DNA of 64,000 nt from assembly GCA_964458775.1 (NCBI GenBank), contig CAYWLQ010000008.1:2895-66894 (forward strand), given 5' to 3'. This DNA is from an uncultured Myxococcales bacterium (GTDB taxonomy: Bacteria; Myxococcota_A; Polyangia; JAAYKL01). Shown here in pieces: positions 7,426-26,360 of the stretch. The notes beneath the pieces were generated by a model. The model did no database searches and had not been told where the DNA came from. It worked only from the letters and a program-made list of their open reading frames with translations. Within the stretch, counting starts at the first letter, position 1, and every line of letters begins with the position of its first letter. The position numbers and the translations under genes are program-made.

Positions 7426-7845
7426 ATGAAACAGTTTATCAATGAAATTGCAGTATCCACATCCGGAAGAGGTTTTTTTAATATCTCATCACAAGTTAAA
7501 TCATGGGTAAGAGAACAAAATATTTCAATCGGTTTGCTGACAGTATTTATCAAACATACTTCTGCGTCTCTCGTAATTCAGGAAAATGCCGATCCCGATG
7601 TTCTTCATGACATGGCTGTCTTTTTTAAAGACTTGGTCAAAGACGGTGACACAAAGTATCGTCACAGTTTAGAAGGTCCGGATGATATGTCCGCTCATAT
7701 AAGAACCTCGCTGACCAGTACCCATCTTTCAATACCGGTAAATGCCGGTGTTCCTTGCCTTGGAACCTGGCAGGGAATATTCCTTTTTGAGCACAGAACT
7801 CACGCTCATAATAGAACAGTTGTTCTGCATCTTATCGGTGAGTGA
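7426..7845 (+). CDS. yjbQ: YjbQ/UPF0047 family secondary thiamine-phosphate synthase-like protein
   Basis: 139 aa; conserved TSASLVIQENADPDV...HLIGE signature of UPF0047. Confidence 0.75.
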   Translation: MKQFINEIAVSTSGRGFFNISSQVKSWVREQNISIGLLTVFIKHTSASLVIQENADPDVLHDMAVFFKDLVKDGDTKYRHSLEGPDDMSAHIRTSLTSTHLSIPVNAGVPCLGTWQGIFLFEHRTHAHNRTVVLHLIGE

Positions 7846-7887
7846 GCAGGGGAATAGTTTGCTGCGGAACTAATGCAGAGGACAATA

Positions 7888-7932
7888 TGGACACAGTGGA
7901 CAGCGTGGACATAGTAGACAGTGTGGACCGGC
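7888..7932. repeat. Five tandem 9-bp units (TGGACANNG) in convergent intergenic spacer
   Basis: TGGACACAG TGGACAGCG TGGACATAG TAGACAGTG TGGACCGGC read directly; lies between stop of yjbQ (+) and stop of the giant kinase/sigma54 gene (-). Confidence 0.7.
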
Positions 7933-7974
7933 AGAAATATATTGTCCAAACTCTAGCAAAATTGTCTTTCCGAT

Positions 7975-10900
7975 TTACCGATTTCTTTTTTTTATAACAC
8001 CCAAACTATCCAGTTTTCGGTAGAACGTTCGTCTTGGAATACCTAGGATTTCTGCGGCCTTGCTGCGATTCCATTTGACTGATTCCAAAACAGATAGAAT
8101 TTTGCTGTCTTCTTCGCTTACAGATTTGGATGTGGTCGGTTTTGAATTAGGCTTTGGGACTTCACTGGATGAAATGAAAATCTCATCGGCTCTGATGGCT
8201 TTAGAGTCGTCTCCTATTGCTAATGCTCTGCGTATTGATTGCTCAAGCTCTCGTACATTTCCCGGCCAGTTGTGTTTTAGCAGCATTGCGGCAGCATCTT
8301 TGGAAAAACTTCTTGGTATCGAAGCGAATCTTACCGCTTCTCTTTCTACTATTCTTCCTGCTAAGGGTAAAATATCTTCTTTGCGCTTTCTTAAAGGCGG
8401 CAGCTCAATTGTTACGACCTGCAATCGATAAAGAAGGTCTTTTCGCAATCCGCCTTCGTTTGCCAGTTTATCTAGGGGAATCCTGGTGGATGCTATAATG
8501 CGCACATTGACACGCAGGTTTCGCTGCGAACCCACCGGGGAAAAGGTTCCGTCTTGCAGCACGCGTAACATGACTGTTTGCATTCTTGGAGACATGTCTC
8601 CTATTTCGTCCAAATATAGGGTCCCTCCGTCAGCAGCAGACAGCAAGCCCTGTCTTTCTGTGTCTGCTCCCGAAAAGGCGCCTTTTTCGTGGCCGAACAA
8701 CATGGATTCCACCAAGGTGTCCGGCATGCTGCCGCAGGAAACAGTTACAAAAGGTTTGTCCTTTAGATTGCTCTGTTCGTGAAGAACCCGTGCAAGCAAG
8801 TCTTTGCCTACGCCGCTCTCACCGGAAAAAATTACCGGAACATTTAAGTCTTTAACTCGCTCTACCGTCGTAAAGACCTTTCGCATTTCCGGCGATGTGC
8901 CGAAAACACCATGATAATCGCCTTCGCCTTCAATTTGCCGTCTTAGTCGTTCTAATCTTTCTCTGGCGGTTTTGAGATTCAAATCCCTTTGATTCAACTC
9001 TTCCAGTCTCTTTTCATAAGCTTCTTGTAGGGTTTTCCTCGCTGTCTGAAGCTCATCGGCTCTTTGTCGAAGTTCGTTTATTAAACGATTTTGTGAAAGA
9101 GCAATGGCAACCTGATTTGCAAAAGCGGAGAGTACTCGCAGATCTCTCTTATCAAATCGACCTCTTCGCAAACGGTTTTCGAGATACAAAACTCCTAGAG
9201 GGCTGCCTCTATAGGATACGGGAAGACATGCCACTGATTTAAGCTTAAGCTCATGAATTGACATAAACTCATTGAATCGGCTGTCCTGCATAGCATCCAC
9301 AGTTACTACCGGTTCGTTATCGAGAAATACAGATTCAGCTATAGAGCAACTGAATCGGTTTTCCGGTGCACCGGTATCAGCGTATTCACAACCGAAAGCT
9401 TTTCCGTCGGATACCGCTCTGATTTCTAAAACTGTTGATTCAGAACCTTCTGCCGGAAGTAAGATCATTCCTCGTTCCGCTCCGGTCAGCTCAATTGCAG
9501 AGCTGAGAATCATTTCTAATAAACGGTTAAGGTTGCTTTCTGAAAGTAGTTGTTTGTTTAAATCTAGAACTCGATAGAGAGCTTCTGCTTCAGTATCCGA
9601 TGTCTTGTCGGGATTATCGAAAAGCTCTGTTGATGAAAATTGATTGGAAGAGGATATTTCACTGAAAAGAGTTCTAACCTCGGATCTTCGCACATCCTGC
9701 CAAAATGCTGCGCGATGCTCATGGGATAAACCTGCACATAGACTTTCGAGAATATTTTCAGCTTCTCTTAAATGTTGCCGCATCAAAAAGACAGAGCCTT
9801 TTACTGACAGTCCTTTTGCGAGTGCCAAATGAGCCTGCCATGCAAAATCCTTGGCCCCTTGATATGTTTGATTTTCGCAGAGCGCCTCTAGCTTTTTCAG
9901 TCCCAGATCCAATTGTCCCTCAGCGATGAGCAGCATTCCCTCATGAAGAGCCAGTGACTCTTCAAACATTCTGCCCTCTTCCTCTCGATTTCTGCTTGAA
10001 GCTAGTTGAATGAGTTCCCTAGCTTTTATTATATCCTCTTTTTCCCCTCTTCTTAAAAGGCAGCCTGCGGTTTCTAATTCAATTTCACACACTATCGCAT
10101 AACGAGAGAGCGATATAAATCCCTTTCTGGCTTCAGCATAAAAACGAAGCGCATCTTCTGTTTCACCTCGGGCTGATGCAGAAGCTGCTGTATGAAATTG
10201 AGACCACAATCTTTGTTCGTCATACCCCAAAGATCTTGCTTCCGCTTCGGCCTGTTCCAGTATAAGACCGGCGCGCTCAAAACAGCCCATTTTAATCAGA
10301 GCGTATCCGTAGTTGTTTCTAACGTTGATTCGCATCAAGGGATTAACCGCTGAACGGGACAGCCGAACAGCCTGTTCATAGTGACGAAGAGATTCTGACC
10401 ATTCTTCCTGCCACAATTTCAGGTCACCCAAAACCAATTTGTCACGCATCAAATGAGGAATATCACCGAATTCAAAATGAAGGGCGGCTGCTCGCTCAAG
10501 CGATAGAGTAGCTTCTTTTAAGTTGCCTGATTTTTGATAAACCCAAGCCAAAATATCGATCGACAAAGCAACGGCTCTCATGTCTCCTGCCAATGCAGCA
10601 TCAGATTCTGCTTCCTTAGCAAACATCAGCGCATCATCTCTTCTGCCCTCTTTAACAGCAGACTTGGCGAGCATACCTAACAGATCGGCTCTAACGCGAT
10701 GTGCATTTGGAGCGTCCTTCAATCCTTCTTCTGCTAAAGCGATACATGATTCAGTGTTATGTTGTTGAAAGGCAATTTTGGCCAAAAGATACAGGATGCG
10801 AGCTCGATCCAATGGATTAACGGTCAAAGACAGAGCTTCACGGAGACACTTTTCAGCTTCATGTAAAGATTCTTTGTCAATATATATTCGCCCCAATAGT

Positions 10901-13161
10901 ATTAAGGCTTCTCGTTTAACAGAAAGATCACTACATAGTGCCGGCTTTGAAAGACACTGTTCGGCAGCAGTTAAATCACCTTGAGAAGACAGCACTCTTC
11001 CAAGCTCCAAAGCTAAGAGGAGATAGGTTTGTTCATTATGAGCAACTGCCTCCATCATTGCTGTCAGCAAATGCTGAGCTGCGTGTAATGCTCCGAGTCT
11101 GTAAAGGGATATTGCTACTGCTGTCCCGCGCTCTTCGATTTTTTTTTGGTCTTTGCATTTGGCTGCGTGATACAGCTGTTTTGCTTCATCGGATTCAAGT
11201 GAAAAAGCACGCCTGTGCATTTCTATAAGTCGATTCCAGTCAGCGGCAGCCAGAATTTCTTTGGCAAGAGGAAGAGTTGCTGCGCACCAGCGCGATGCCG
11301 AGCTTTTGAGCCTACCGCTTGCTGTTAAAGACGAAAGTGCGGAATCAACCGATATTGAATCTCTGCCCGAAACAATTGTGATCTCTTCAGCTGAAGCAGG
11401 CCGGTCAAGTACAGCAGCCGCTTCGAGTACGCATCTTTCGATTTCATTGAGGGTTAACAATCTTTCGCGCCAATATGTTTCCAGCTGTTTAGGCGGCCCC
11501 AGGCTTTCCAGTTTTGTCATACCTTCCGGGTTTTTAGAAATATCGTGGAGCAAGGTAGTTACAAAAAGCGGATTTCCTCCGGTATGGGCAAAAATTCGGG
11601 TTACCGCTTCCTGGTCGGCACTTCCAAGAAAACATTCTGTAATGTGGGATGTTTGTTCGAAAGATAAAAGCGGCATTACTAAAGTTTCGGCCGATCCCAA
11701 ATGTGTTTGCCATGAAAAAGATATCTCACACGAAGCTAACACAGCAAGAGGAACATCTCTTTCAACTGCCGCCGCCAAAACCCGCAATACGGCCAGAGTT
11801 TCAAATGATGCTTGTTCCAAACCGTCAATAATAAGCAAGAGCTTTGAACGTTTGGCAATGCCGATTAACAAATCTGAAGTTGATTTGGCTAATACATCCA
11901 GATGTGCATAATTTTTTTGGGGTTCACTAAGTGCTGATATTAACTGTTTTGTCCGCTGAATCGCCTCATCATCTTTTTCTAAAAAGAATACTGCCTGTTC
12001 GATTATATCTGCAAAGGGACGAAGAAGGCTGCCGCTACCGCCTGATTCGAGAACCGGTATATGTGCCAATTGAGCCCACCACTTGATACTGCGCAAAAGT
12101 GCGCTTTTCCCGGTTCCGGATTGACCTTCTACAACAACCAGAGGAGACAAATCCGATATTTGAAATCTTTTTTGCAAAGCTTCTTGCAGTTTAAAGAACT
12201 CACGATCACGACCTAATGACTCACTAAATACAGCACAGTCTGCAAAACGATCTTCATCGACAGCAGCGGTAAAAATTGATGTGAGAGCCGCTTCCGCTTC
12301 GACAGCCGTCGGAAATCGATGGTTAGGATTTCTTGATAATAATCTTCCTATAATACTTTGTAGGGCTTCTAGTGTTGAGGATTCCTCCTGTTTGACAATT
12401 AGGCGTTTTAATACCGGTAGACTCCGCTTTTCACCCAAATGTCCCTTAACAATTTCGGAAACCGACCCTTCAAAAGGAGGTGCTCCCGAAAGAATTTCAA
12501 ACAATGTAGCACCGAGGGAATATAGATCAGCTCTGGCATCGGCTCTTTTTTTTTCGATAACTTCAGGTGCCATATAGGGAACGGTTCCTCGCAGCTTGGC
12601 GTCTTCATTGTCTGATCTGACAAAAGAAAAATCTATTAGCTTTGCCACACCGTCCGAAGAACAAATAATGTTTCCCGGTTTAAGATCACCGTGAACCAAA
12701 CCTCGTCCGTGTAGGAGTTTTAGTGAACGGCATATTTCGACAAACAACCTTATCGCATCAGGAAGCCGCATATTTTGAGTTGCTGACATGAGGTCTTCAC
12801 CGGGAATATACTCCCTGGTAAAAAAAACTCTTCCGTCGAGAGACGCCCCAAAATCGTACACTTCAGAAAGCCTGGGATGTTTCAAACCTGCCAAGGCTTC
12901 AAATTCGTGTTTAAAAACCGAACGCCAGTTCTCGTCGGCTTTGGGTCTAAGAATCTTAAACACCAACATCTTGTTGTCCAGATAACGGTCCTGTACCAAA
13001 TGAACCGTTCCCTGTCCGCCCTCTCCCAGTCTTCTCAGATGCGTGTACCGAGTTTCCAGGCTTTGAAACAACTTCTCATCTGAAACGATCTCAAAATCTT
13101 TGTTTGGTGACTCATCGTGTGCCATAATGTGCACAGTGGCACAGCTGTAGTTTGGTGACAA
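7975..13161 (-). CDS. Giant multidomain signalling protein: Ser/Thr kinase - STAND/AAA NTPase - TPR array - GAF - sigma-54 AAA+ activator - Fis HTH
   Basis: 1728 aa. Kinase: LGEGGQGTV, VFKIL Lys, HGDLKPGNI catalytic loop (non-RD), DFS, APE. Walker A GQSGTGKS ~aa 345. Long TPR-like helical region. GAF-like segment. Second Walker A GESGVGKD, GAFSGA motif, C-terminal HTH (ILGIPRRTFYRKL). Confidence 0.85.
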   Translation of the reverse strand: MSPNYSCATVHIMAHDESPNKDFEIVSDEKLFQSLETRYTHLRRLGEGGQGTVHLVQDRYLDNKMLVFKILRPKADENWRSVFKHEFEALAGLKHPRLSEVYDFGASLDGRVFFTREYIPGEDLMSATQNMRLPDAIRLFVEICRSLKLLHGRGLVHGDLKPGNIICSSDGVAKLIDFSFVRSDNEDAKLRGTVPYMAPEVIEKKRADARADLYSLGATLFEILSGAPPFEGSVSEIVKGHLGEKRSLPVLKRLIVKQEESSTLEALQSIIGRLLSRNPNHRFPTAVEAEAALTSIFTAAVDEDRFADCAVFSESLGRDREFFKLQEALQKRFQISDLSPLVVVEGQSGTGKSALLRSIKWWAQLAHIPVLESGGSGSLLRPFADIIEQAVFFLEKDDEAIQRTKQLISALSEPQKNYAHLDVLAKSTSDLLIGIAKRSKLLLIIDGLEQASFETLAVLRVLAAAVERDVPLAVLASCEISFSWQTHLGSAETLVMPLLSFEQTSHITECFLGSADQEAVTRIFAHTGGNPLFVTTLLHDISKNPEGMTKLESLGPPKQLETYWRERLLTLNEIERCVLEAAAVLDRPASAEEITIVSGRDSISVDSALSSLTASGRLKSSASRWCAATLPLAKEILAAADWNRLIEMHRRAFSLESDEAKQLYHAAKCKDQKKIEERGTAVAISLYRLGALHAAQHLLTAMMEAVAHNEQTYLLLALELGRVLSSQGDLTAAEQCLSKPALCSDLSVKREALILLGRIYIDKESLHEAEKCLREALSLTVNPLDRARILYLLAKIAFQQHNTESCIALAEEGLKDAPNAHRVRADLLGMLAKSAVKEGRRDDALMFAKEAESDAALAGDMRAVALSIDILAWVYQKSGNLKEATLSLERAAALHFEFGDIPHLMRDKLVLGDLKLWQEEWSESLRHYEQAVRLSRSAVNPLMRINVRNNYGYALIKMGCFERAGLILEQAEAEARSLGYDEQRLWSQFHTAASASARGETEDALRFYAEARKGFISLSRYAIVCEIELETAGCLLRRGEKEDIIKARELIQLASSRNREEEGRMFEESLALHEGMLLIAEGQLDLGLKKLEALCENQTYQGAKDFAWQAHLALAKGLSVKGSVFLMRQHLREAENILESLCAGLSHEHRAAFWQDVRRSEVRTLFSEISSSNQFSSTELFDNPDKTSDTEAEALYRVLDLNKQLLSESNLNRLLEMILSSAIELTGAERGMILLPAEGSESTVLEIRAVSDGKAFGCEYADTGAPENRFSCSIAESVFLDNEPVVTVDAMQDSRFNEFMSIHELKLKSVACLPVSYRGSPLGVLYLENRLRRGRFDKRDLRVLSAFANQVAIALSQNRLINELRQRADELQTARKTLQEAYEKRLEELNQRDLNLKTARERLERLRRQIEGEGDYHGVFGTSPEMRKVFTTVERVKDLNVPVIFSGESGVGKDLLARVLHEQSNLKDKPFVTVSCGSMPDTLVESMLFGHEKGAFSGADTERQGLLSAADGGTLYLDEIGDMSPRMQTVMLRVLQDGTFSPVGSQRNLRVNVRIIASTRIPLDKLANEGGLRKDLLYRLQVVTIELPPLRKRKEDILPLAGRIVEREAVRFASIPRSFSKDAAAMLLKHNWPGNVRELEQSIRRALAIGDDSKAIRADEIFISSSEVPKPNSKPTTSKSVSEEDSKILSVLESVKWNRSKAAEILGIPRRTFYRKLDSLGVIKKRNR

Positions 13162-16861: not shown

Positions 16862-18406
16862 TTAAGGACCTCCAGGTATCGGCCATCCGTCTTCATCAAA
16901 GGGCATTTCTGTTATTCTAAGCACCGAGGCGCCGTTGCTCTGTCTGTATGCGTGATAAAAGTGATAAATTTTTTCATCTACTATAATGACCTCACTGTGG
17001 CCGGCTGCTGCATAGTTTACTCCGTCTCCTTGAACCATGAGAGTTCCTCCTCCGTTGAGCATCGGAGTTCCGCTTTTGTCATGATACGGACCCAATATAT
17101 TTTCGGAGCGACCTACCCTGACATTGTAGGTGCTGTTTGCACCTTGACAGCAGGTGCCCCACGAAACAAAGAGATAGTAATAACCGCATCGACGAAACAA
17201 CACAGGAGCCTCAATAGATGAGTTCCAGGCTAGACGAGTTAACTCATTCCCTACCCGATTTCCGTCTTGATCTAGCTCAAACGCCATTATTCCATCCCAA
17301 AAGCTGCCGAAAGCCAACCACGGAGTCCCGTCCTCATCGAGTTCCGCATCCGCATCTATTGCGTTGTATCGTTCATTACCCTGTGTGCAAATTACCGGTC
17401 CGTGATCTGTCCATGGGCCTGTTATGTATTCGGCCGTTAGATGTGTTATACACGAAATATTGTCTCCAAAAACTGCAGAAAAAGAAGAGTAAATATGATA
17501 TTTGCCGCCGAAAAAGATAATGTCCGGAGCCCACGGAAAATTAAACTCCTGTCCCTGAATACCGGCTAACCATTCGGTTGACCATGAGGGGTATCTGTTG
17601 CCGTAGATATTGCCTGCATTGGTCCAGTTTAACAGGTTGGTAGAACGTGCCATGGGAATATAGTTTCCCGTCCAAAGAACATAGAACGTATCTCCTTCTT
17701 GTATCATAGAGGGATCGTGAACTCCGAAATTGGCAACATTGAGAGGCTGAGGAGCTGTACCTTGATAAATGCCGATCTCGCAACGGTCATCCGCATCAGT
17801 GTCTGAGTCACTGTCAGTATCAGTATCTGTATCTGTATCTGCGTCAGCGTCGGTATCTGCATCGGTATCAGCGTCGGTATCTGCATCGGTATCTGCATCG
17901 GTATCCGCGTCGGTGTCTGCGTCGGTATCTGCATCGGTATCTGCATCGGTATCTGCATCGGTATCTGCATCGGTATCAGTGTCGGTATCAATGTCAGTAT
18001 CGGAATCTGTATCTGTATCGGTATCTGCGTCAGTGTCCGAATCCGCATCATTATCCGAGTCTGAGTCAGCATCGGCATCAGCATCGGCATCAGCATCGGC
18101 ATCAGTATCGGCATCAGCATCAGCGTCTGCATCGGTGTCAGCGTCAGTATCTGTGTCAGCATCTGAATCTGAATCTGCGTCCGTATCTGCGTCCGTATCT
18201 GCGTCCGTATCTGTGTCAGCATCATTATCCGAATCCGAGTCAGCATCAGCATCAGAGTCAGCGTCAGCGTCACTGTCCGCATCACTTTGACCGTTAGAGC
18301 TATCTGTGTCTATAAATTCATCTTGATTATTCTTGTCGGAAGAGCAAGCGGCAACAAGCACAAAAAAACATACAGGCATAGGCAATTTCATTATCGACTC
18401 CTTCAT
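16862..18406 (-). CDS. Lipoprotein glycoside hydrolase family 43 (arabinanase-like) with ~170-aa Asp-Thr/Asp-Ala/Asp-Ser repeat stalk
   Basis: Signal + lipobox (LVAACS); pure D-X dipeptide run; catalytic domain starts [16 protein letters not shown] (GH43 N-terminal Asp motif), 5-bladed propeller-like remainder. Confidence 0.7.
17790..18295. repeat. Tandem 6/12-bp DNA repeats (GATACC/GATGC-type) encoding D-T/D-A/D-S stalk
   Basis: Visible as gtcggtatctgcatcggtatc... iterations; generates spurious ORFs in all other frames. Confidence 0.85.
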
Positions 18407-18494: not shown

Positions 18495-20057
18495 CTACTC
18501 GCCGGATGGCGATTCTATATCTGTAGAAAGAGCCATAGGAATGCCGAAATTAGGTGTGCCGTCTTCGTTCCACATTATTTTTTGTATGCGAGTGGTTCGA
18601 TCTGTCCAACAGCTTCCTCTGGGATTAGTTGTGGCATGATAGGCTATCCAGTGTTCAGTTCCGTCCGGCGACATAAAAAATCCGTTATGACCTGTGCCGT
18701 AAGCACCGTTTGCCTGGGAAAACACCGGTGTGGGGTGCTTGGTCCAAGAGGATGACATTGCAGGATTAAAACCGGTAAGCTCCAACATGCCCAGTTTATA
18801 TCCGGGATCGGCACACTGGCTTGCAGAGTAGATAACAAAAATGCGACCGTTTCTATAAAGAGGTTCGGGTCCTTCGTTAACCGAGTCGCTTCCCTCCATT
18901 TCCCATGGATATTCAGGCATTGAAAGAAGTGTTCCCGCTTGAGGATTTTTATTAGTCGTCGCGGTAGGCCCGGACATGGGAACAAGCCATATACGCTGTG
19001 TAGCTCCTGACCAAGCCGAATACATAAAATAGCGATTGCCTTCTACTTCCAACACACTTCCGTCAATAGCCCAGCCATTCATCATGGTTCCGACATAGGT
19101 ATAAGTTCCCATCGGACCGTCCGGATCGTCTTCCGAAGCTCCGCTCAACACATGTGTTTGCTGGGTACCGAGATCCTTTCCGTCTCCGGCAGTGTAGTAC
19201 ATATACCAGCGACCGTCCAGAAGATGAAATTCCGGTGCCCACATGTTGCAGCATCGAGAAGGTGTACTGTCAGACCAAATAATATCAGGACGTGCATCTT
19301 TGAGTTCTTGAATTGTTCGTCCCTTTTTCATGGTAAGAGTCGTGCCCCAGGTTGTCGCAGCCAAATAGTAATACCCCTTATAATAAAGCATCCAAGGATC
19401 AGATCCGTGTGATGCATTTAGAGGGTTGTTAAAGTAAGAGGGAGGCTTGGTTTCTGAATCAGTTTCAATATCAGAGTCAGTGTCGCTGTTTGTATCTGAA
19501 TCGCCGGCCGTGTCGGTATCCGTGTCTGTGTCGGTATCCGTGTCTGTGTCGGTATCTGTGTCCGTATCCGTGTCGGTATCCGTGTCGGTATCCGTATCTG
19601 TGTCCGTATCGGTATCTGTGTCCGTATCGGTATCTGTGTCCGTATCGGTATCCGTGTCGGTATCCGTATCCGTATCGGTGTCAATGTCCGTATCTGTATC
19701 GGAATCCGAGTCGCTATCTGCATCTGAGTCACTATCTGCATCCGAATCGCTGTCTGAATCTGTATCAGCATCACTATCTGAATCCGAATCTGTATCCGTA
19801 TCTGAATCTGAGTCCGTATCACTGTCTGCATCCGTGTCACTATCGGAATCCAAGTCGCTATCTGCATCTGCATCTGCATCAGTATCAGTATCAGTACTGC
19901 TAAAACCGCTGTCCGTATCATGGTTCATTTCATTGTCGACATTGTCAGAAGCACAAGAAGAGACAAAGACAACCATAACAGTGCAAAAACAAAACTCTTT
20001 AAAAAGCACACGAGAAACTGAAGTTTTCTTCAATACCAATTCTTCAGAAAAAAACAT
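18495..20057 (-). CDS. Secreted GH43-family glycoside hydrolase with ~150-aa Asp-Thr/Asp-Ser repeat stalk
   Basis: Signal peptide; DTDTDT... run (>40 consecutive DT); catalytic region begins [21 protein letters not shown], beta-propeller-like; second paralogous architecture to 16862-18406. Confidence 0.6.
19455..19905. repeat. Tandem 6-bp DNA repeats (GTATCC/GACAC-type) encoding D-T/D-S stalk
   Basis: gtgtcggtatccgtgtctgtgtcggtatc... iterations. Confidence 0.85.
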
Positions 20058-20266
20058 ATAAAATCTCCTTTAAATAATTTCAGCGAAATATGACGGTCAC
20101 AGTATTTCGAAAAAGAACCGCTTCAGTTGTTATTGGGATTAAACCTTAAAATTGTGTTTAAAAAAAAATTATGTGCTTGTACAACCACCCCCCCAAACGG
20201 ATCATGCTGATATAACTGATAATTGGGACCTTGAGACGATTGGCTTATTGAGGTTTTCTTAAGATA

Positions 20267-21481
20267 TTAGATAACCGATATAAGAGAACAGTCATAGTCA
20301 CCTATAAGAGAATCCTGTCGTAGAATTACGTAATTGGCTGCTTGCTCACATACAAAGTACATCGCATCTACTACATTCCCTTCTATTTGTTGGGGATTGA
20401 TACAAGATGCTGTCAGTATATCATTTTCAGCGATACCTCTAACTATGTATCCGTCGGAAGTAACTCCCTGAAAGTAGTATTCATACCAACTGAGGGATAA
20501 AATATCTTTGCCTTCTGCGATTGTAGAAGCTTTAGCGGATTCGGCATTTCCGACAACCACGGTACCGTTGTTGCCTGCTGCCACAAACTTTCCTTGGCGA
20601 TCTGATACAGCAACTAGGTCTTCAACCGTATCTACAGGAATGCGTTTCCACTCATTTTGTCGGTGAATATATAGTCCTCCCTTAGGCCCAACCGCCAGAT
20701 AACACCAGCCTTCTTCGCAACTCATAACCGTCATACGATTAACAGTTATATTTGCTTGAGGCGACAGCTCTTCTTTCCATTGTGTCCATTGAGAGCTTTT
20801 TGAGGAGCATTTTATTCCGTTTCCGTAAGCACAAATTTCATCTATTGAAGGCGTTTCCGTTCTTAGCAATCTGGCCAATCCGGTTAGTTTTGAATCTCTA
20901 TGTATTTCTTCAAATAGGCCTATATCATCTGTCAGTTTGTATATTGCGCTTTCAGTTCCGTCTGTTGCTAAAATAAAGGCCGAGTTGATCTTCTCAACCG
21001 GATCATAACGACAAATAATTGATTTCGGAGGCAGCGGAATACTAGCTTCAAATGACGATAGAATATTATTGTCTGCAAACGGACTCGTAAAAACAGCCGC
21101 AGCTCTATAACCGTTTTCCTCCTGGAGAGACAGCAGCAAACAATTTCCGCTCATAGCAACAAAACGGCTGTTTTCGAGAAGATTGTTTGCAAAAAAAACC
21201 GAATACGTTGAAACATCAGAACATTCCAAAGAAGTTAAAGTATCAACTAAATCTGAATTTGTATCAGCGTCTTCAACTGAGTCGGGCGCAGAATCTGTAT
21301 TTGTGTCGGAATCAAAGTGGGTTTGTGACTCAAAATCAGAACCGGTATCTGAATCCAAAGTTTTTTCTTCTGTACTTATATCAACGGGCAAAAAACCTTC
21401 TTGTAATCCCGGACCGCAGGACGGCAAAAAAATCAAGATTAGGCATACAATCGATACACATGATTTAAAAATGCACATCAT
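20267..21481 (-). CDS. Hypothetical acidic lipoprotein, last gene of ECF/caspase cassette
   Basis: Start moved to internal ATG overlapping the caspase-gene stop (AAATGATG); lipobox FLPSCG; Asp/Ser/Thr-rich linker then ~330-aa beta-rich domain with no recognisable motif. Confidence 0.5.
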   Translation of the reverse strand: MMCIFKSCVSIVCLILIFLPSCGPGLQEGFLPVDISTEEKTLDSDTGSDFESQTHFDSDTNTDSAPDSVEDADTNSDLVDTLTSLECSDVSTYSVFFANNLLENSRFVAMSGNCLLLSLQEENGYRAAAVFTSPFADNNILSSFEASIPLPPKSIICRYDPVEKINSAFILATDGTESAIYKLTDDIGLFEEIHRDSKLTGLARLLRTETPSIDEICAYGNGIKCSSKSSQWTQWKEELSPQANITVNRMTVMSCEEGWCYLAVGPKGGLYIHRQNEWKRIPVDTVEDLVAVSDRQGKFVAAGNNGTVVVGNAESAKASTIAEGKDILSLSWYEYYFQGVTSDGYIVRGIAENDILTASCINPQQIEGNVVDAMYFVCEQAANYVILRQDSLIGDYDCSLISVI

Positions 21482-23034
21482 TTGGACCAACGTCCTCCAA
21501 GGCTTAAAATTGCCATTGCATCCAATCTGTGTACCCAACCTTTTTCTTGTACTTGAAAAGTTCTTGCTCCTACTCCGCCGTCAATGCCTATAACAATTCC
21601 TCCAGTCGAAAACGAAATACCCAACATTCCTACATAGTCAAAACCTGAGGTATGTCGTCTTTTTCCTTCTCGTCTAGATTGAAACATATGCTCATATCCG
21701 GCTGCAATTTCAGCAATAAATGCCAGCTTTCTTACGGGCAAGTGATAACCTCCCCCGACCAGAAAACCGACATCGTTGTAACCGTCGGAAATACCTACAT
21801 CCTTTCCTGTTGACCAGTTTATGCGTGAAGATACATACCATTTGGAAGAAAATAGAGCACGATAAGCAGTTGATGCTCCGTAACCGGAAACAGCTCCTGC
21901 AAGAGGAAATTTGCGCCACATACCTCCTACTGAAACGGTGTGAACGAGGGACTTGGGCTCAAAGAAAATGCCGCCTTTATCTATTCCTGTTTCTAATTCT
22001 ATCGGATGAAAATCCAAGGCTTCTAACACTGCACTTTGTCGGTTTTCCAAATTCACGGTTGCGGATTTTACCCCTCCGTCATCGGATGTTAAAAAAATCC
22101 AATATTTTCCTGCGGTCAGGGTTACTTGAATTGTCTCCTCTGCAACAACGTCAGCTTCGGCAAACATCATATTTCGAGCTTCATCGACAACCATGATACG
22201 TCCCGATTCAGGAAGCTTTATAACCAAACGCGAATTAGTTTCGCCTGTTTTTGTAAGAACAATGTCACCCTTGCCCGCCAATTTAAATTCGTACATGGGA
22301 TGCTGAGCTCCGCCGACTGTCACACTGGTTCTGGCTAGAGTTCGACGAAAAGCATAATCATATGCCTCCGAAAGAGTAACCTTCCCATCATTAGAAACGT
22401 CACCGGCTCCCCTTAATGCTGAGATCAGATAGTGGGTAAAAAAAGCACCTCTAATTTCTTTTGATTCCTGAGAAAGTTCACTTTCTGAACTTGAAGTAAC
22501 AATTGCATAACCGCTTGAGGAAATTTCATCTTTTACGAGAATATCAAATCCGCGTCCTTTACTACCGCCTTTCATTGATACAAGCTTGCCGCTTCTGCAT
22601 GAATCCATAAATGCAAGCCTCACATCTGCAGAAGATGAACGCATATAATTGAGCACCTCAGCCATCGGCAAAGAAGAATCGCCCAGCTCCAAAACATCGC
22701 CGTCAGCATGTCCGGAATAATACACAATAAAAAGAGTCTTTACAGAAGCATCTCGCGCATGAGCCTTAACTCTTTTTTCCATGCGTGATAATTCAGAAGA
22801 AACCTCAGGTGCGCTTCTACCCAGCAATAGAGCGGCATTTTCGGGTTTAATACCGCCGAGTTCTATCATGGTTTGATAAAATTTTTCTGCGTCCTTCTCG
22901 GCAAAATTAAGCCCTCTTGTCGGTTCATGACCTATATTATTGCCGATAACAAGGGCATACTTTAAGGTTTCCGCAAAACCTATTGCAGGACTAAACAGCA
23001 GAGAAGTAACCACAATAGAGTATATTATTCTCAT
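21478..23034 (-). CDS. Secreted caspase-like peptidase C14 domain protein with C-terminal beta-rich (putative outer-membrane beta-barrel) domain
   Basis: Sec signal (AIGFA/ET). YALVIGNN start of caspase fold, His region YYSGHADGD, Cys region AFMDSCRSG, p10-like GAFFTHYLISALRGAGD...DGKVTLSEAYDY. C-terminal ~200 aa of alternating-hydrophobic strands rich in Gly/aromatic residues. Confidence 0.7.
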   Translation of the reverse strand: MRIIYSIVVTSLLFSPAIGFAETLKYALVIGNNIGHEPTRGLNFAEKDAEKFYQTMIELGGIKPENAALLLGRSAPEVSSELSRMEKRVKAHARDASVKTLFIVYYSGHADGDVLELGDSSLPMAEVLNYMRSSSADVRLAFMDSCRSGKLVSMKGGSKGRGFDILVKDEISSSGYAIVTSSSESELSQESKEIRGAFFTHYLISALRGAGDVSNDGKVTLSEAYDYAFRRTLARTSVTVGGAQHPMYEFKLAGKGDIVLTKTGETNSRLVIKLPESGRIMVVDEARNMMFAEADVVAEETIQVTLTAGKYWIFLTSDDGGVKSATVNLENRQSAVLEALDFHPIELETGIDKGGIFFEPKSLVHTVSVGGMWRKFPLAGAVSGYGASTAYRALFSSKWYVSSRINWSTGKDVGISDGYNDVGFLVGGGYHLPVRKLAFIAEIAAGYEHMFQSRREGKRRHTSGFDYVGMLGISFSTGGIVIGIDGGVGARTFQVQEKGWVHRLDAMAILSLGGRWSK

Positions 23035-23780
23035 TGAGTCGGATTGCTCTCCTTCATCACAGTAATGGAGCGCACGATAAGTTCCTTCCCTTGCTTTGGA
23101 ATAAAAGCATCTTTTCTATTAAACGGCTTTGAAGAAAAGACACCTGTGTAGGTCTCTTCACCAAGAACATCATCCAATAAAATGCTTCCGTCCATTATAT
23201 GAATACCGGCAGCTTCTATTCTTAAAGGTTCAACGTCCTGTTCAGGTGAGTTATCAGGATAAAACGGTGACAGTTTTCCGCTTTTATCCTTTGAAAAGAT
23301 TGTCAAGTATCCGGGTTCTCCAACTGTCACTATAAACATAATAGAATCGCCTTCTTTTAGTGAGGTTCCGTCCTTTACTTCAAACTGCTTGCCTTGTCGA
23401 TTTCCTATGATCTTCATAGAAAATTCGCCTTTAAAAGCTATTCGGTCGCTGTCTTGTGAATTCTCAGTTCTATCTATACCGAAAAATAAGAATAAGAGGG
23501 CAGCTGCTGCTGCGGCAAATAGACCTGCCAATGCAAAGGATTTAAAAGCCGTACTTCGTGTTTTGCTTTGACCAAATTTTTGATCAATCTCAGAGTTAAG
23601 TCTTCTGATTCGATTGTCTTCGTCTTTTGAAAACTCTCTAATATTTGTATCCATCTCTTCGGACAACTTGGTACAAGCAGCACACAATTCTAAATGACAT
23701 CTAATATTCTCTGCATCTAATTGCTCCAAATCATTTGCCTTGTAACGTGACATCAGTAGGTGCGAAGGACAATCTGTCAT
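23031..23780 (-). CDS. Zinc-finger (Hx3Cx2C) anti-sigma factor, single TM, periplasmic beta-rich sensor domain
   Basis: CHLELCAAC motif in N-terminal cytoplasmic part, TM AFKSFALAGLFAAAAAALLFLFFGI, ~130-aa C-terminal extracytoplasmic domain; sits directly after ECF sigma gene; 4-nt overlap with caspase gene. Confidence 0.7.
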   Translation of the reverse strand: MTDCPSHLLMSRYKANDLEQLDAENIRCHLELCAACTKLSEEMDTNIREFSKDEDNRIRRLNSEIDQKFGQSKTRSTAFKSFALAGLFAAAAAALLFLFFGIDRTENSQDSDRIAFKGEFSMKIIGNRQGKQFEVKDGTSLKEGDSIMFIVTVGEPGYLTIFSKDKSGKLSPFYPDNSPEQDVEPLRIEAAGIHIMDGSILLDDVLGEETYTGVFSSKPFNRKDAFIPKQGKELIVRSITVMKESNPTQ

Positions 23781-23783
23781 GTT

Positions 23784-24320
23784 TCAATTCTCCTCAAAAT
23801 GATGTCCGACCTGCTTTCTAAGTGCAGTCAAACGTTTTACAACAGCTCTTCTCGATATACCGAGCATTGAAGCCATTTCTTCCTGGCTCATTCGCGACAA
23901 ATAATGCCCCACAAGGATTTCAAAGCTGCGCTCGTCCATATCCTTAACCAAGCTTTCCAGTACACGCCGAGCGTGGAGCACTTCGGTCGGATGCGTTAAG
24001 TCAGTCGGAACCATGCTTATATCTTGAGAAAGTACAAACCCTTTACGTCTTCTCGTTCGCATGATTTTAAAACAGATATTTGAAGCGATTCGATAAAGCC
24101 ACGGCAAGCGGCTGTCGCCGTAAGTAAATGAATCATATGCTCCGTAGGCGCTCAAAAAAACCTCCTGAACAGCGTCCTCTGCCTCTGCTTTGTCTCCCAA
24201 GAGCCTGAGGCAATGGTCATAAAGCACGCCGGAAAACTTGCGGTGAAGGGCAGTTATCTCCCGCTTTTTGATTTCCGACCTCGCCATCTGTTCAATCCCG
24301 GATAAAACCATCTTGAGCAC
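23784..24320 (-). CDS. ECF-type RNA polymerase sigma-70 factor
   Basis: Region 2 (AEDAVQEVFLSAY...) and region 4 HTH (LSRMSQEEMASMLGISRRAVVKRL); true start may be an internal Met (annotated 5' end overlaps prmC). Confidence 0.8.
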   Translation of the reverse strand: MLKMVLSGIEQMARSEIKKREITALHRKFSGVLYDHCLRLLGDKAEAEDAVQEVFLSAYGAYDSFTYGDSRLPWLYRIASNICFKIMRTRRRKGFVLSQDISMVPTDLTHPTEVLHARRVLESLVKDMDERSFEILVGHYLSRMSQEEMASMLGISRRAVVKRLTALRKQVGHHFEEN

Positions 24321-25203
24321 CTTGTTCTGACGGTAGGCTATCTTTTTTTAAAACCGCTACTCGCAGACTTCCGCTTAAGTCAGATAATCCAATTCCCTTG
24401 ATAGTGAAAAAGCGAGGAGCAATATTGTCCAACAAATCGCTAAATTGAAAAGGATCCAGTTCCATCAATAAAAAGCCTCCCGGATTTAAAAAGTCAGATG
24501 CCTGTTCTATAATGCGACGCGCCAAATCCAAACCGTCTTTTCCTCCTGACAGGGCAAGTTGAGGTTCAAAAAGAACTTCTTTTTGCAAATTAGGTATGTC
24601 TTCGTCAGGTATATATGGGGGATTGGCAGTAATTATGTCATAATGCATAGATGCCACAGGTTCAAACAAATCTCCTTTAAACACGTTTACTCTTTCTTTC
24701 ATGCCGAGTCTTTCGATATTTCTTTTTGCAACCAAAACAGCATCGTGAGAAATATCGACGGCGTCTACTTTCCATTTCGTTTTTTCTGATGCCAGAGCTG
24801 CCGCAACACATCCGGTGCCGGTACACAAATCAAGAGCCGTGCCATAATCTCCCATCCTGGAAATGGCTGCTTCCACAAGAGTTTCCGTATCCGGTCTTGG
24901 AATTAATACACTTGGGGAAACCTCAAAAGACATAGACCAGAACTCTTTAGTTCCGGTAATATAAGCCAAAGGTTCCCCTTTTCTCCTTCTTATAATTGTT
25001 TGCCTAAAAGATGCCAGTTCGGCCTCTTCGAGCGGCCTATCAAAATTGGTATAGAGAAAGATTCTCTCTGTATTTAACAAATAAGCCAGCAGAAGTTCAG
25101 CATCCAATCTGGCCGAAGCAATTCCCCTACTTTTGAAATCTTCCGTCGCCCAGTTTAGTACCTTCCCAATTGTCCAATCAGTCATGTTCAGAACATTAGG
25201 CAA
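24292..25203 (-). CDS. prmC: Release factor glutamine N5-methyltransferase PrmC (HemK)
   Basis: Class I MTase GxGxG (LDLCTGTGC), NPPY motif (ITANPPYIP), 303 aa. Confidence 0.85.
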   Translation of the reverse strand: MPNVLNMTDWTIGKVLNWATEDFKSRGIASARLDAELLLAYLLNTERIFLYTNFDRPLEEAELASFRQTIIRRRKGEPLAYITGTKEFWSMSFEVSPSVLIPRPDTETLVEAAISRMGDYGTALDLCTGTGCVAAALASEKTKWKVDAVDISHDAVLVAKRNIERLGMKERVNVFKGDLFEPVASMHYDIITANPPYIPDEDIPNLQKEVLFEPQLALSGGKDGLDLARRIIEQASDFLNPGGFLLMELDPFQFSDLLDNIAPRFFTIKGIGLSDLSGSLRVAVLKKDSLPSEQGAQDGFIRD

Positions 25204-25319
25204 GTGACTTTATCGGGTCAAGAACGATACAAAAGATAATAATTATTCTCTATATGAAAACAATATGTTTATATAAATATATATACCCCCTACCCCCAAA
25301 AGCTTGACGAGAGGTTTGT

Positions 25320-26360
25320 TTGTGGTCCATTTACACAAGTCTTGCTTGGGAACAAACCCAAAATAGAGTGCAAATTATGACGTATTTTGAAAAAAACACA
25401 ATAAATACAGTGATAAGGCATCAGTTCGGTTATCCGACAGCTCTAGAAAAGCTTAGTTCTCCGCCTGAAATGCTTCGCATTCGCGGTTGTTTGGGAAACG
25501 GTCCCTGTGTCGGAATAGTAGGATCAAGAAAAGCTGACAATGCCTCGATAAGATTTGCATTTTCCCTTTCTGAAGAGCTTGCCGGAATGGGATTTTGTAT
25601 TGTTTCAGGAGGCGCGCTCGGTATTGATACTGCTGCTCACAAAGGAGCATTGCAAGCAAAAGGCATTACTGTCTCAGTGATCGGCTCAGGATTTAACTAT
25701 CTATATCCTGTTGAAAATAAAGATCTCTTCGAAGAAATTGCTGTGTCCGGAGCATTGGTTTCCGAATTTGACGACGAACAGCCGCCCGCAAAATGGACTT
25801 TTCCCAAAAGAAACCGAATTGTTGCAGCCTTATCTGATGCCTTAATAGTAGTGCAAGCGCCTGAACGATCAGGTGCCTTGATAACTGCTGAAATAGCAAA
25901 AGATATTGGCATACCTATCGGCGCAGTGCCTTCATTTCCCCAAGATTTAAAAAACCGCGGAGCACATAACCTAATTAGACAAGGTGCTGCATTAATTGAA
26001 AATATCGACGATGTTCTGAAGCTGGTTGCTTCAAAGAAGATTAGCCCTCAACTGTCTTTGCCCGGTATCGGAGTACAAAAGTCTGTTTTTCAAACTGTAA
26101 ATGACGGAGTAAAATCTTCTGCGTCTCCCCTTGAAAAAAGGGCTATGGGGGACACATTTTCCTCCCCCTCAACAGCAGCAGCGCTGTCTAAAACAGAAAA
26201 AGAAATACTAAATTATTTATGCACTGAACCCCTACATATCGACGAAATTACTTCCGGACTTAAAATTCTGCCAAGTCAGACTGCTACTGCTATTTTGACT
26301 TTGGAGCTTCAAGGATTGATAGAGGATAGAGGCGGAAGAAATTTTGTGAGAGTTGGTTAA
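25320..26360 (+). CDS. dprA: DNA processing protein DprA (Smf)
   Basis: Rossmann-like core IVGSRKA...GFCIVSGGALGIDTAAH, C-terminal winged-helix; precedes topA as in smf-topA-gid synteny. Confidence 0.85.
   Translation: MWSIYTSLAWEQTQNRVQIMTYFEKNTINTVIRHQFGYPTALEKLSSPPEMLRIRGCLGNGPCVGIVGSRKADNASIRFAFSLSEELAGMGFCIVSGGALGIDTAAHKGALQAKGITVSVIGSGFNYLYPVENKDLFEEIAVSGALVSEFDDEQPPAKWTFPKRNRIVAALSDALIVVQAPERSGALITAEIAKDIGIPIGAVPSFPQDLKNRGAHNLIRQGAALIENIDDVLKLVASKKISPQLSLPGIGVQKSVFQTVNDGVKSSASPLEKRAMGDTFSSPSTAAALSKTEKEILNYLCTEPLHIDEITSGLKILPSQTATAILTLELQGLIEDRGGRNFVRVG

Follow-up and report, generated by a model that had tools for sequence, protein, structure and literature searches.

A sigma factor, anti-sigma factor, caspase-like protease and lipoprotein cassette of Myxococcota and its possible role in protease-controlled envelope signalling

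Genes and predicted products of the cassette

The window analysed here, a 64-kb stretch of DNA from an uncultured Myxococcales bacterium (assembly GCA_964458775.1, contig CAYWLQ010000008.1), carries on its minus strand a cassette of four tightly abutted open reading frames (ORFs; 23784-24320, 23031-23780, 21478-23034 and 20267-21538 in the ORF list of the window), which encode, in that order, a sigma factor of the extracytoplasmic function (ECF) type, an anti-sigma factor, a C14 caspase-like protease and an acidic lipoprotein. The TGA stop codon of the sigma gene (23786-23784) is separated by 3 nt from the ATG of the anti-sigma gene (23780), which is preceded by GAGGAG, and ATGA overlaps join the anti-sigma gene to the caspase gene (23034/23031) and the caspase gene to the lipoprotein gene (21481/21478). 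These junction sequences agree with the original prediction, made from the letters of the sequence, of four adjoining minus-strand genes in this order with one 3-nt gap and two ATGA overlaps. The GC content is low (~43%). All features of the cassette described below lie on the minus strand.

The sigma factor ORF (23784-24320) opens with a GTG at 24320 (178 residues), and the ATG at 24311 is the more likely start because the resulting length of 175 residues matches that of the sigma factors of the closest relatives (175-176 residues). With 175-178 residues and regions sigma-2 and sigma-4 only, the protein is an ECF (group 4) member of the sigma-70 family. It matched Pfam Sigma70_r2 (9.7e-13, 48 bits, cut-off 24), Sigma70_r4_2 (1.1e-6, 28.6 bits, cut-off 25.7) and Sigma70_ECF (8.4e-6, 26.2 bits, cut-off 21.1) as well as NCBIfam TIGR02937 (76 bits, cut-off 43); among the NCBIfam equivalog and subfamily models, every score for the sigma factor fell under the cut-off of the model.

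The second gene (23031-23780) encodes a predicted single-pass anti-sigma factor of 249 residues. Its AlphaFold2 model (predicted local distance difference test (pLDDT) score of 86.7) comprises three N-terminal helices (residues 7-14, 20-32 and 34-73) forming an anti-sigma domain (residues 1-73; 23562-23780), a transmembrane (TM) helix (residues 81-100; 23481-23540; SFALAGLFAAAAAALLFLFF), a disordered linker predicted to be periplasmic (residues 101-120; 23421-23480; GIDRTENSQDSDRIAFKGEF), in which residues 103-113 have pLDDT values below 50, and a beta-sandwich with confident strands (residues 121-244; 23049-23420). In this modelled topology, a cytoplasmic zinc-motif domain would hold the sigma factor and a DUF4384 domain would be carried on a short disordered periplasmic tether. 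The DUF4384 assignment (PF14326) came from hmmscan at 1.2e-5 and 25.8 bits, slightly under the 27-bit cut-off, and a precomputed table lists PF14326 for the window protein (P0121), for its closest relatives and for the neighbouring proteins in loci L001, L084 and L085. Structural neighbours of the sandwich were generic immunoglobulin (Ig)-like, carbohydrate-binding and macroglobulin-type sandwiches only, and the macroglobulin likeness was not taken as functional.

The N-terminal domain contains the motif C4-x24-H29-x3-C33-x2-C36, whose four residues are putative zinc ligands. In an alignment of 73 anti-sigma sequences, collected as gene neighbours of related caspases, position 4 was H or C in 62/73 sequences, and H29, C33 and C36 were each present in 65/73; all four were invariant in the closest seven sequences. 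The zf-HC2 model (PF13490) matched the window protein at E 0.027 and 15 bits, under its cut-off of 22.2, and some homologues have a precomputed PF13490 match (P0128, P0135, P0140 and P0141). On motif and helices, the protein is predicted to be a class I zinc-motif (ZAS) anti-sigma factor that binds zinc and sequesters the sigma factor. The most conserved site of the family, above the zinc ligands, is K117-G118 (nt 23427-23432), where the disordered linker ends: position 117 is occupied by K in 71/73 sequences and R in the other 2/73 (basic in 73/73), position 118 is G in 70/73, and the linker from the TM helix to K117 spans 7-26 residues in 72/73. Within the TM helix, A90 is invariant and A91 and A92 are at least 90% conserved, a run (A90-A92) which we take to resemble the cryptic Ala-rich degrons of RseA and RsiW. 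The anti-sigma family is large; its profile retrieved 2,169 cluster representatives at E<=1e-30, and nearly all of the best 150 were 230-285 residues long. A variant of the family, P0154 (758 residues), has a duplicated N-terminal segment without H-x3-C-x2-C and four tandem DUF4384-like periplasmic repeats.

The third gene (21478-23034) encodes a metacaspase-like C14 protease of 518 residues. A Sec signal peptide was predicted at residues 1-21 (22972-23034; MRIIYSIVVTSLLFSPAIGFA) from the sequence, in which a basic n-region is followed by a hydrophobic core and by GFA in the c-region, and a hydrophobic N-terminus ending in A-x-A is conserved across the caspase family. The caspase-fold domain (residues 22-255; 22270-22971) matched Peptidase_C14 (PF00656; 9.8e-11, 42.2 bits, cut-off 21.4) over residues 25-252. 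The His109 (in YYSGHADG; nt 22708-22710) and Cys146 (in MDSCRSG; nt 22597-22599) of the catalytic dyad are invariant in 90 homologues, as are D48 and D144, and from the intact dyad the protein is predicted to be proteolytically active. The nearest solved structures by sequence profile were plant and yeast metacaspases; in the alignment with Arabidopsis metacaspase-4 (6w8s; E 6e-10), H109 falls under YSGH, D144-S-C146 under DSCHSG, and D48 under the Asp of CVND. The D48 and D144 positions presumably line the basic-specific (Arg/Lys) S1 pocket in metacaspase structures, and the pair forms a candidate acidic S1 pocket with a predicted preference for Arg or Lys. Right after the catalytic Cys lies a disordered basic loop (residues 153-168; 22531-22578; SMKGGSKGRGFDILVK; pLDDT <50), which contains KGGSKGRG (family consensus KGGRRGP; K155 and G156 at least 90% conserved) and is a candidate autoprocessing site.

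The AlphaFold2 model of the caspase has a pLDDT of 86.4, and the N-terminal part, when compared with the PDB by Foldseek, matched Yca1 (9.5e-7) and, at probability 1.0, caspase-3, -6, -7 and -9 and legumain, assigning the predicted model to the caspase-hemoglobinase fold. The modelled domain is followed by a beta-sandwich spacer (residues 259-338; 22021-22260; AlphaFold2 strands), which was considered as a second DUF4384 domain and rejected (hhalign probability 3%), and by a predicted eight-stranded barrel (residues 364-517; 21484-21945), in which the 10-residue blocks have pLDDT values mostly of 86-97, with two at 70 and 80. Foldseek matched this C-terminal part to OmpA (6e-8), Ail (8e-8) and OmpX (4.7e-7), with TM-scores of 0.66-0.77 on the target, and also to NspA, OprF and OmpW. 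One homologue (P0060) carries the Pfam family OMP_b-brl (PF13505), and the caspase family profile reaches position 490 or beyond in 45/84 related ORFs. Both termini of an eight-stranded barrel face the periplasm, and the longer barrel loops of the model (residues 376-383 and 411-418) lie at the expected extracellular positions if the N-terminus is periplasmic; for these reasons the protease domain is predicted to be suspended in the periplasm, held by the outer membrane. The family search gave more than 1,100 matches, most of the best 120 being ~500-560 residues long, from Myxococcota and 'Deltaproteobacteria' metagenome-assembled genomes (MAGs), and the window caspase is 56% identical to a homologue in a Polyangia MAG. 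When the four proteins were searched with the PADLOC models, the only result was a generic 'caspase' match of low score (E 0.0015, 15.8 bits), and no defence system was detected. Membership of the EACC1-associated caspases (NCBIfam NF047832, caspase_w_EACC1) was rejected at 59.4 bits against a cut-off of 140.

Translation of the fourth gene from the ATG at 21481 (20267-21481; 404 residues) gives MMCIFKSCVSIVCLILIFLPS-C22-GPG, with a lipobox (IFLPS-C22, continuing as CGPGLQEG) in which the Pro at -2 is unusual. C22-G-P-G is invariant in six homologues, and a bacterial lipoprotein is predicted from the lipobox with its invariant Cys. The mature protein has a pI of 4.2 and consists of an Asp/Ser/Thr-rich linker (residues 23-100; 19 D/E vs 1 K/R) and a Cys-containing globular domain of no known family; searches of Pfam and NCBIfam with this protein and with five homologues returned no family, the sole hint being a beta-propeller at 0.045.

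The domain calls of the original prediction all hold on these results. Its ECF sigma factor matched both the Sigma70_r2 and Sigma70_r4_2 models above their cut-offs; its single-TM ZAS-type anti-sigma factor with a beta-rich periplasmic domain agrees with the family-wide motif and the modelled topology; its exported C14 protein retains both dyad positions, with an above-cut-off Peptidase_C14 match and H109 and C146 invariant in the 90 homologues; and its acidic lipoprotein has the low pI and the invariant lipobox Cys22. The profile searches proposed for the anti-sigma factor placed DUF4384 just under its cut-off, with precomputed PF14326 entries in support, and did not reach the cut-off of zf-HC2. 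The beta-barrel expected in the C-terminal half of the caspase was recovered by structure prediction as an eight-stranded OmpA/OmpX-like fold; it makes up the last third of the protein and not the half, and is preceded by the separate sandwich.

Conservation of the trio and a promoter-like motif

A pattern scan with one genome per species returned 563 loci with caspase relatives, of which the best 80, from 69 assemblies, were kept. Six-frame ORFs of these loci were compared with the window proteins, and the longest ORF was taken in GC-rich loci, resulting in spurious N-terminal extensions. The sigma, anti-sigma and caspase genes were adjacent, in this order and on one strand, in 68/80 loci, or 69 when the divergent anti-sigma of L070 is counted, a locus in which a sigma gene and a divergent anti-sigma-like ORF stand beside the caspase gene. 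Among these 80 loci, up to three copies of the trio were present per assembly, and the trio was kept at 35-60% protein identity, down to ~35-40% identity for the caspase. Nearly all loci are labelled Myxococcota or Deltaproteobacteria, including Polyangia, Kofleriaceae, Nannocystaceae, Myxococcaceae, Pyxidicoccus, Archangium, Haliangium and Bradymonadales. The trio was also recovered from independently called genes, annotated with precomputed Pfam labels, in L001, L002, L084, L085 and one further contig, and 5 of the 12 exceptions are cut by contig ends. The gene-neighbourhood survey that the original prediction had suggested thus found a recurrent ECF/anti-sigma partner of C14 homologues, and the adjacency is not unique to one genome, because the trio recurs in 68-69 of the 80 loci. 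The cassette belongs to an extensive family of envelope-signalling modules, found mainly in myxobacteria and sharing three constant genes.

In the window clade the colinear block is one of five genes, beginning with prmC (24292-25203, minus strand; release-factor glutamine methyltransferase; Pfam PrmC_N 1.1e-22, MTS 6e-18), a gene that is context to the core module and not part of it. The block has five genes since the 3' end of prmC (stop codon 24292-24294) is overlapped by the sigma gene from either start, ATG 24311 (by ~20 nt) or GTG 24320. In the closest relatives (L001, L084 and L085) the sigma gene is likewise immediately preceded by prmC, and other genes take this position in distant loci (e.g. 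L002). The overlap and the linkage in the window clade suggest that basal expression of the module is provided by read-through from a housekeeping promoter. Identities between the window and its three nearest relatives were 62-64% for prmC, 64-68% for the sigma factor, 60-63% for the caspase, 42-45% for the anti-sigma factor and 33-36% for the lipoprotein, and the latter two are therefore the fast-evolving parts. In L004, another caspase homologue, whose C-terminal 177 residues differ (9322-10983), and a second ECF sigma gene (11587-12060) are found ~2 kb downstream of the first module in a differing arrangement.

The body of the window lipoprotein has homologues only in the closest loci (L001, L004, L009, L013, L084 and L085); in L009 a lipoprotein of this type is tandemly duplicated downstream of the caspase gene (7512-8717 and 8748-9974). 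A lipobox ORF directly follows the caspase gene in 42-43 of the ~75 loci with enough downstream sequence. These ORFs range from 150 to 1,000 residues and are mutually unrelated by BLAST, and the downstream lipoproteins of distant loci were rejected as homologues of the window lipoprotein, since BLAST clustering was negative beyond an N-terminal motif. The first mature residues were C-G-x-G-(V/L/I) or C-(D/N)-G-V in 25/43 of the post-caspase lipobox ORFs vs 16/181 other lipobox ORFs of the same loci, a noisy control set containing many spurious ORFs from GC-rich DNA. A Cys-Gly-Pro-Gly-(Val/Leu) start, found at 21404-21430 in the window, recurs in the downstream ORFs of L004, L007, L009, L013, L024, L027, L032, L034, L075, L084 and L085, often with x-Glu-Gly or x-x-Asp-Pro next. 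The shared N-terminus could be a sorting or docking motif, or may be a general habit of myxobacterial lipoproteins.

The classical ECF promoter, (G/T)GAAC-N15-19-(C/G)GT, was rejected for the sigma genes, being present upstream in 5/75 sequences at scattered positions. An unbiased dyad count gave TGCGCA-N15-18-(C)GGGTT(A/G/T) in one subclade, and TGCGCA-N15-18-GGGTT(A/G/T) had 37 matches in 957 kb of loci vs 16.5 +/- 4.2 in shuffles. Sixteen of the copies precede sigma starts by 5-36 nt (e.g. L025 4757, L029 4715), and ~12 follow the caspase stop codon, at 6-8 nt in nine loci and at 44-297 nt in L056, L041 and L042 (L027 7470, L029 7458, L034 7577, L039 7517, L043 7463, L047 7497 and L049 7553 among the positions after the caspase). 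Where the next ORF could be called, the post-caspase copy lies 7-50 nt upstream of it and the ORF is usually a lipoprotein; in L056 it is a secreted-looking ORF without a lipobox, and in L025 no ORF was callable. Two further copies precede other nearby lipoproteins of the same N-terminal type, and no copy was found between the anti-sigma and caspase genes in the surveyed loci. This pattern, in a Kofleriaceae/Myxococcaceae-type subclade, is expected for an autoregulated sigma/anti-sigma/caspase operon with a directly controlled lipoprotein: as the motif stands before the sigma and lipoprotein genes and not before the caspase gene, the caspase would belong to the regulatory operon and the lipoprotein would be a separate target. 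On the motif of that related subclade, the output under a promoter of its own would be the downstream lipoprotein and not the caspase, and the variable lipoprotein is the probable output of the module. A scan of 19900-25500 in the window for sigma-70 promoters and terminators gave counts not above those of shuffles.

Directly downstream of the cassette are two adjacent genes for GH43 glycoside hydrolases (16862-18406 and 18495-20057, minus strand; matched in Pfam at 2e-47 and 6.7e-52). Both proteins have a signal or lipobox-like N-terminus and a linker of ~150-180 residues made of Asp/Ser/Thr/Ala dipeptide repeats (DSDTDAD...), and an acidic linker of this type, in shorter form, is also present in the lipoprotein of the cassette. 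Elsewhere in the window (7975-13161, minus strand), a protein of 1,728 residues combines a kinase and an enhancer-binding protein in a single chain, being a fusion of Ser/Thr kinase, AAA_16, TPR, GAF, sigma-54 activator and HTH_8 domains.

A possible proteolytic switch and its alternatives

The reading that we prefer, with a probability of roughly 45%, is that the caspase makes the site-1 cut in a regulated-intramembrane-proteolysis (RIP) switch and that the lipoprotein is an output. An envelope or outer-membrane cue would activate the protease, possibly via self-cleavage in the basic loop 153-168, and the caspase would dock on the DUF4384 domain of the anti-sigma factor and cut its tether after Lys117 (K117|G118), removing the bulky periplasmic domain. 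The remaining stump, with ~16 periplasmic residues, would become a substrate of the site-2 protease RseP, Clp-type proteases would degrade the Ala-rich end exposed by the RseP cut, and the freed sigma factor would transcribe its own operon and the adjacent lipoprotein gene. In this scheme we infer the outer-membrane localisation and periplasmic orientation of the caspase, its contact with DUF4384, the position of the cut, what kind of signal acts and the part played by RseP and Clp. In two of the closest relatives, L001 (8692-9312) and L085 (5234-5854), the gene after the lipoprotein gene encodes a rhomboid intramembrane protease, with other genes at this position in the window and L084; the intramembrane cut of the anti-sigma factor could alternatively be made by this rhomboid.

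Such a site-1 scheme fits the cassette because an exposed basic linker residue lies near the membrane, the partner has an invariant dyad and a putative acidic pocket, and the TM helix has an Ala run. K117-G118, basic in 73/73 sequences, appears to fit an S1 pocket of the acidic metacaspase type, and the anti-sigma factor is compatible with RIP in being single-pass, with a short disordered linker containing K-G and the TM Ala run. A partnership of DUF4384 with caspase-fold proteases is supported by three precedents: DUF4384 is fused to orthocaspases in 23 cyanobacterial proteins (PMC8283722, Table 1); it is one type of C-terminal domain of Csx30, the substrate of the caspase-like Csx29 and a partner of an ECF sigma factor (bioRxiv 10.1101/2022.08.17.504292); and in the DdvA protein of Myxococcus xanthus a periplasmic CHAT domain of caspase fold was proposed as its own site-1 protease, truncated DdvA being degraded in an RseP-dependent manner (PMC11506125). 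In its most specific form, the preferred reading makes the outer-membrane caspase a dedicated, operon-encoded site-1 protease that recognises DUF4384 and cuts after the invariant lysine in a two-membrane relay, a version that we put forward tentatively and at somewhat less than even odds.

Several observations weigh against the caspase as site-1 protease. The contact between the caspase and DUF4384, and the cleavage itself, are events that we infer, and the outer-membrane localisation rests on a predicted model and a signal peptide read from the sequence. K117-G118 stands directly before the first sandwich strand and could be conserved for folding rather than for cleavage, and it is uncertain whether partners in different membranes, on short tethers, meet across the periplasm. 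The place of the caspase gene in an autoregulated operon would suit an output equally well. In ~6 loci with enough upstream sequence (L007, L017, L048, L057, L073 and L082), the caspase gene has no detectable adjacent sigma/anti-sigma pair; L007 retains merely a weak anti-sigma-like match, and in L017 the pair lies 1.5 kb downstream of the caspase gene, with the lipoprotein directly next. No match to TGCGCA-N-CGGGTTA with up to two mismatches was found near the cassette in the window and its closest relatives, and in this clade the lipoprotein gene overlaps the caspase gene instead of having the motif, and would be co-transcribed with it.

The caspase may itself be an output, in which case the DUF4384 anti-sigma factor would sense the signal and be inactivated by a generic site-1 protease or by oxidation of its zinc site, and the tethered caspase and the lipoprotein would be envelope effectors, for example in envelope remodelling, developmental lysis or the processing of prey proteins. 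Co-transcription with an apparently autoregulated sigma gene would raise the level of the caspase on induction, regulon members are common in ECF operons, the complete ZAS motif could permit a redox route, and a role in cell death was speculated on by Asplund-Samuelsson et al. 2012 (PMC3501461). The rigid gene order, however, with the caspase gene directly after and mostly overlapping the anti-sigma gene, is the pattern of a signalling component and not of cargo, whereas the downstream lipoprotein is variable and has its own promoter copy in one subclade. Elsewhere, moreover, caspase-fold proteases repeatedly carry DUF4384 as a fusion or have it in their targets, and the near-invariant basic linker residue matches the predicted P1 preference, so that we regard an output role as rather unlikely. 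A further alternative is a trans-envelope contact sensor in which the caspase would not cut the anti-sigma factor, although the invariant dyad and S1 residues and the matching basic linker residue would be unnecessary for pure shielding. In such a sensor, the caspase and its sandwich would bind DUF4384 and shield the anti-sigma factor from a housekeeping site-1 protease, and loss of contact through outer-membrane damage, a change in periplasmic width or misassembly of the barrel would expose it, catalysis being directed at the caspase itself, the lipoprotein or another target. The predicted placement of the partners in opposite membranes with short tethers is in keeping with this arrangement and recalls FecA-FecR and RcsF-type trans-envelope sensors, and Ig-like and macroglobulin-type binding domains are similar in fold to DUF4384; the contact with the caspase is again presumed, and we consider a sensor of this kind unlikely.

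Alternatively, the lipoprotein could be a substrate or regulator of the caspase, processed or released by it, and, whole or as a fragment, a ligand of DUF4384 in a feedback loop. The frequency of a lipobox ORF after the caspase gene (42-43 of ~75 loci), its shared N-terminus (25/43 vs 16/181), the sigma-type promoter motif shared in one subclade and the lipoprotein of L017, which directly follows the anti-sigma gene, are in favour of such a role. However, the shared N-terminal motif is without a conserved Lys or Arg for a metacaspase-type cut, its enrichment is soft as the control set is full of spurious GC-rich ORFs, and ~40% of loci are without a lipobox ORF by a simple rule, leaving this alternative quite improbable. 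That four genes of unrelated function came to be adjacent by chance is barely credible: it is refuted by synteny, the trio being found in 68-69/80 loci of 69 assemblies at 35-60% identity and in multiple copies, four of them in M. xanthus.

Bacterial caspase homologues are abundant and almost none has a known substrate or role, and myxobacterial metacaspases have been tied to developmental cell death by speculation alone. A candidate substrate with a predicted cleavage site makes the metacaspase operons testable in M. xanthus, which has four copies. If the caspase is the site-1 protease of the cassette, it would represent a new class of such proteases, of cysteine type, with a caspase fold and an outer-membrane anchor, and, after DdvA, an independent second example of ECF sigma factors under the control of caspase-fold modules. 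DUF4384 would gain its first general function, serving caspase-fold proteases as a substrate or docking module, an idea that would join the cyanobacterial orthocaspase fusions, the craspase substrates and these anti-sigma factors. The relay would be multiplied in myxobacteria, with several copies per genome and thousands of metagenomic variants, each driving a fast-evolving lipoprotein, and myxobacterial metacaspases would signal rather than kill cells. If the caspase is instead an output, the cassette would be a common type of ECF operon in which the envelope protease is the unusual element.

Relation to known systems

The original prediction stated that no direct pairing of a C14 protease with an ECF/anti-sigma pair was known to have been described; this does not stand, as the gene order had already been catalogued by Asplund-Samuelsson et al. 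2012 (PMC3501461, supplementary file 3). Four of the five metacaspases of M. xanthus DK1622 are in operons with an ECF sigma factor (PMC3501461, section 13, supplementary file 3): MXAN_4949-4952 and MXAN_6681-6684 are ordered as ECF sigma factor, hypothetical protein with one TM helix, metacaspase and lipoprotein, and MXAN_7214-7216 and MXAN_7454-7456 are shorter versions (PMC3501461 supplement). The arrangement was also recorded in Anaeromyxobacter, Haliangium, Sorangium, Ralstonia and Fibrobacter (PMC3501461). The window cassette resembles the M. xanthus operons in gene order, in the size of the metacaspases (~515-577 residues in M. xanthus) and in the lipoprotein found in two of them (PMC3501461), orthology with the MXAN operons being drawn via related genomes and not from direct protein alignment. 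Among the loci surveyed here, those of Myxococcaceae and Pyxidicoccus (L024, L027, L032 and L083) have the trio. The earlier catalogue went no further than recording 'sigma-70' as a common denominator and suggesting cell death, without an anti-sigma factor, DUF4384, barrel, cleavage site or promoter (PMC3501461).

In open-access full texts, no functional study of the MXAN operon genes was found, a search that could miss subscription papers on M. xanthus ECF sigma factors, and no paper in these full texts combined 'anti-sigma' with Peptidase_C14. The main text of the 2021 ECF reclassification has no mention of caspase, C14 or DUF4384. The cassette is a fresh member of a catalogued but uncharacterised operon family and a variant of protease-controlled ECF signalling. 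New here are the recognition of a ZAS/DUF4384 anti-sigma factor in the middle gene, the outer-membrane anchor predicted for the caspase, the candidate K-G site, the lipoprotein as probable output, and the promoter-like motif common to sigma and lipoprotein genes in one subclade.

The logic proposed for the cassette is RIP of the RseA/RsiW type. In the Sigma-E/RseA/DegS/RseP system of Escherichia coli and the SigW/RsiW/PrsW/RasP system of Bacillus subtilis, a site-1 cut is followed by a site-2 cut and by degradation from an Ala-rich end, and a TM Ala run is present in the anti-sigma factor of the cassette. The known site-1 proteases DegS, a serine protease, and PrsW, a metalloprotease, are both located in the inner membrane, whereas the candidate of the cassette is a cysteine protease of caspase fold from the same operon, with a predicted tether to the outer membrane. 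In FecI/FecR/FecA, an outer-membrane barrel, a single-pass anti-sigma factor of the inner membrane and an ECF sigma factor likewise signal across the periplasm. In contrast to the cassette caspase, FecA has no protease; it is a TonB-dependent transporter of 22 strands with an N-terminal signalling domain, and the periplasmic domain of FecR differs.

Caspase-fold proteins have been linked to ECF sigma factors in several other settings, including the Csx29/Csx30/RpoE craspase (bioRxiv 10.1101/2022.08.17.504292), EACC2-caspase systems with an ECF sigma factor (PMC8195603) and the ECF54 group, which has CHAT proteins in its genetic context (PMC8999054). In the craspase, Csx29 (TPR-CHAT) cuts the sigma-binding Csx30 at a flexible linker and thereby controls an ECF sigma factor (bioRxiv 10.1101/2022.08.17.504292), a logic like that proposed here; unlike the cassette, it is cytoplasmic, RNA-guided and encoded in a CRISPR locus, and uses a CHAT-type protease without membrane anchors. 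The EACC1 and EACC2 systems (Kaur et al.; PMC8195603) have caspase domains beside ECF sigma genes, as does the cassette, but are cytoplasmic and contain EACC modules, DUF1822/TPR and STAND NTPases, whereas the window caspase is predicted to be exported and is sub-threshold for the EACC1-associated family (59 vs 140 bits). Cyanobacterial orthocaspases combine a C14 p20-type domain with DUF4384, their fifth most frequent accessory domain (PMC8283722); there the two domains form one polypeptide with no sigma/anti-sigma partner, and in the cassette they belong to two proteins predicted to lie in two membranes.

DdvA, from the same phylum, resembles the cassette in several respects: an ECF sigma factor is present, the single-pass anti-sigma factor has a zinc-bound N-terminal domain of CHCC type, and a periplasmic caspase-fold His-Cys module was proposed to act as site-1 protease before RseP (PMC11506125). 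It controls an island of CBASS and CRISPR defence systems (PMC11506125), whereas the cassette is without a defence signature (PADLOC). In DdvA the CHAT domain is fused to the anti-sigma factor in a protein of ~900 residues that is dimeric and would act on itself in trans (PMC11506125), while the cassette has a separate C14/metacaspase-type protein, predicted to be located in the outer membrane, and an anti-sigma factor carrying a small DUF4384 sandwich.

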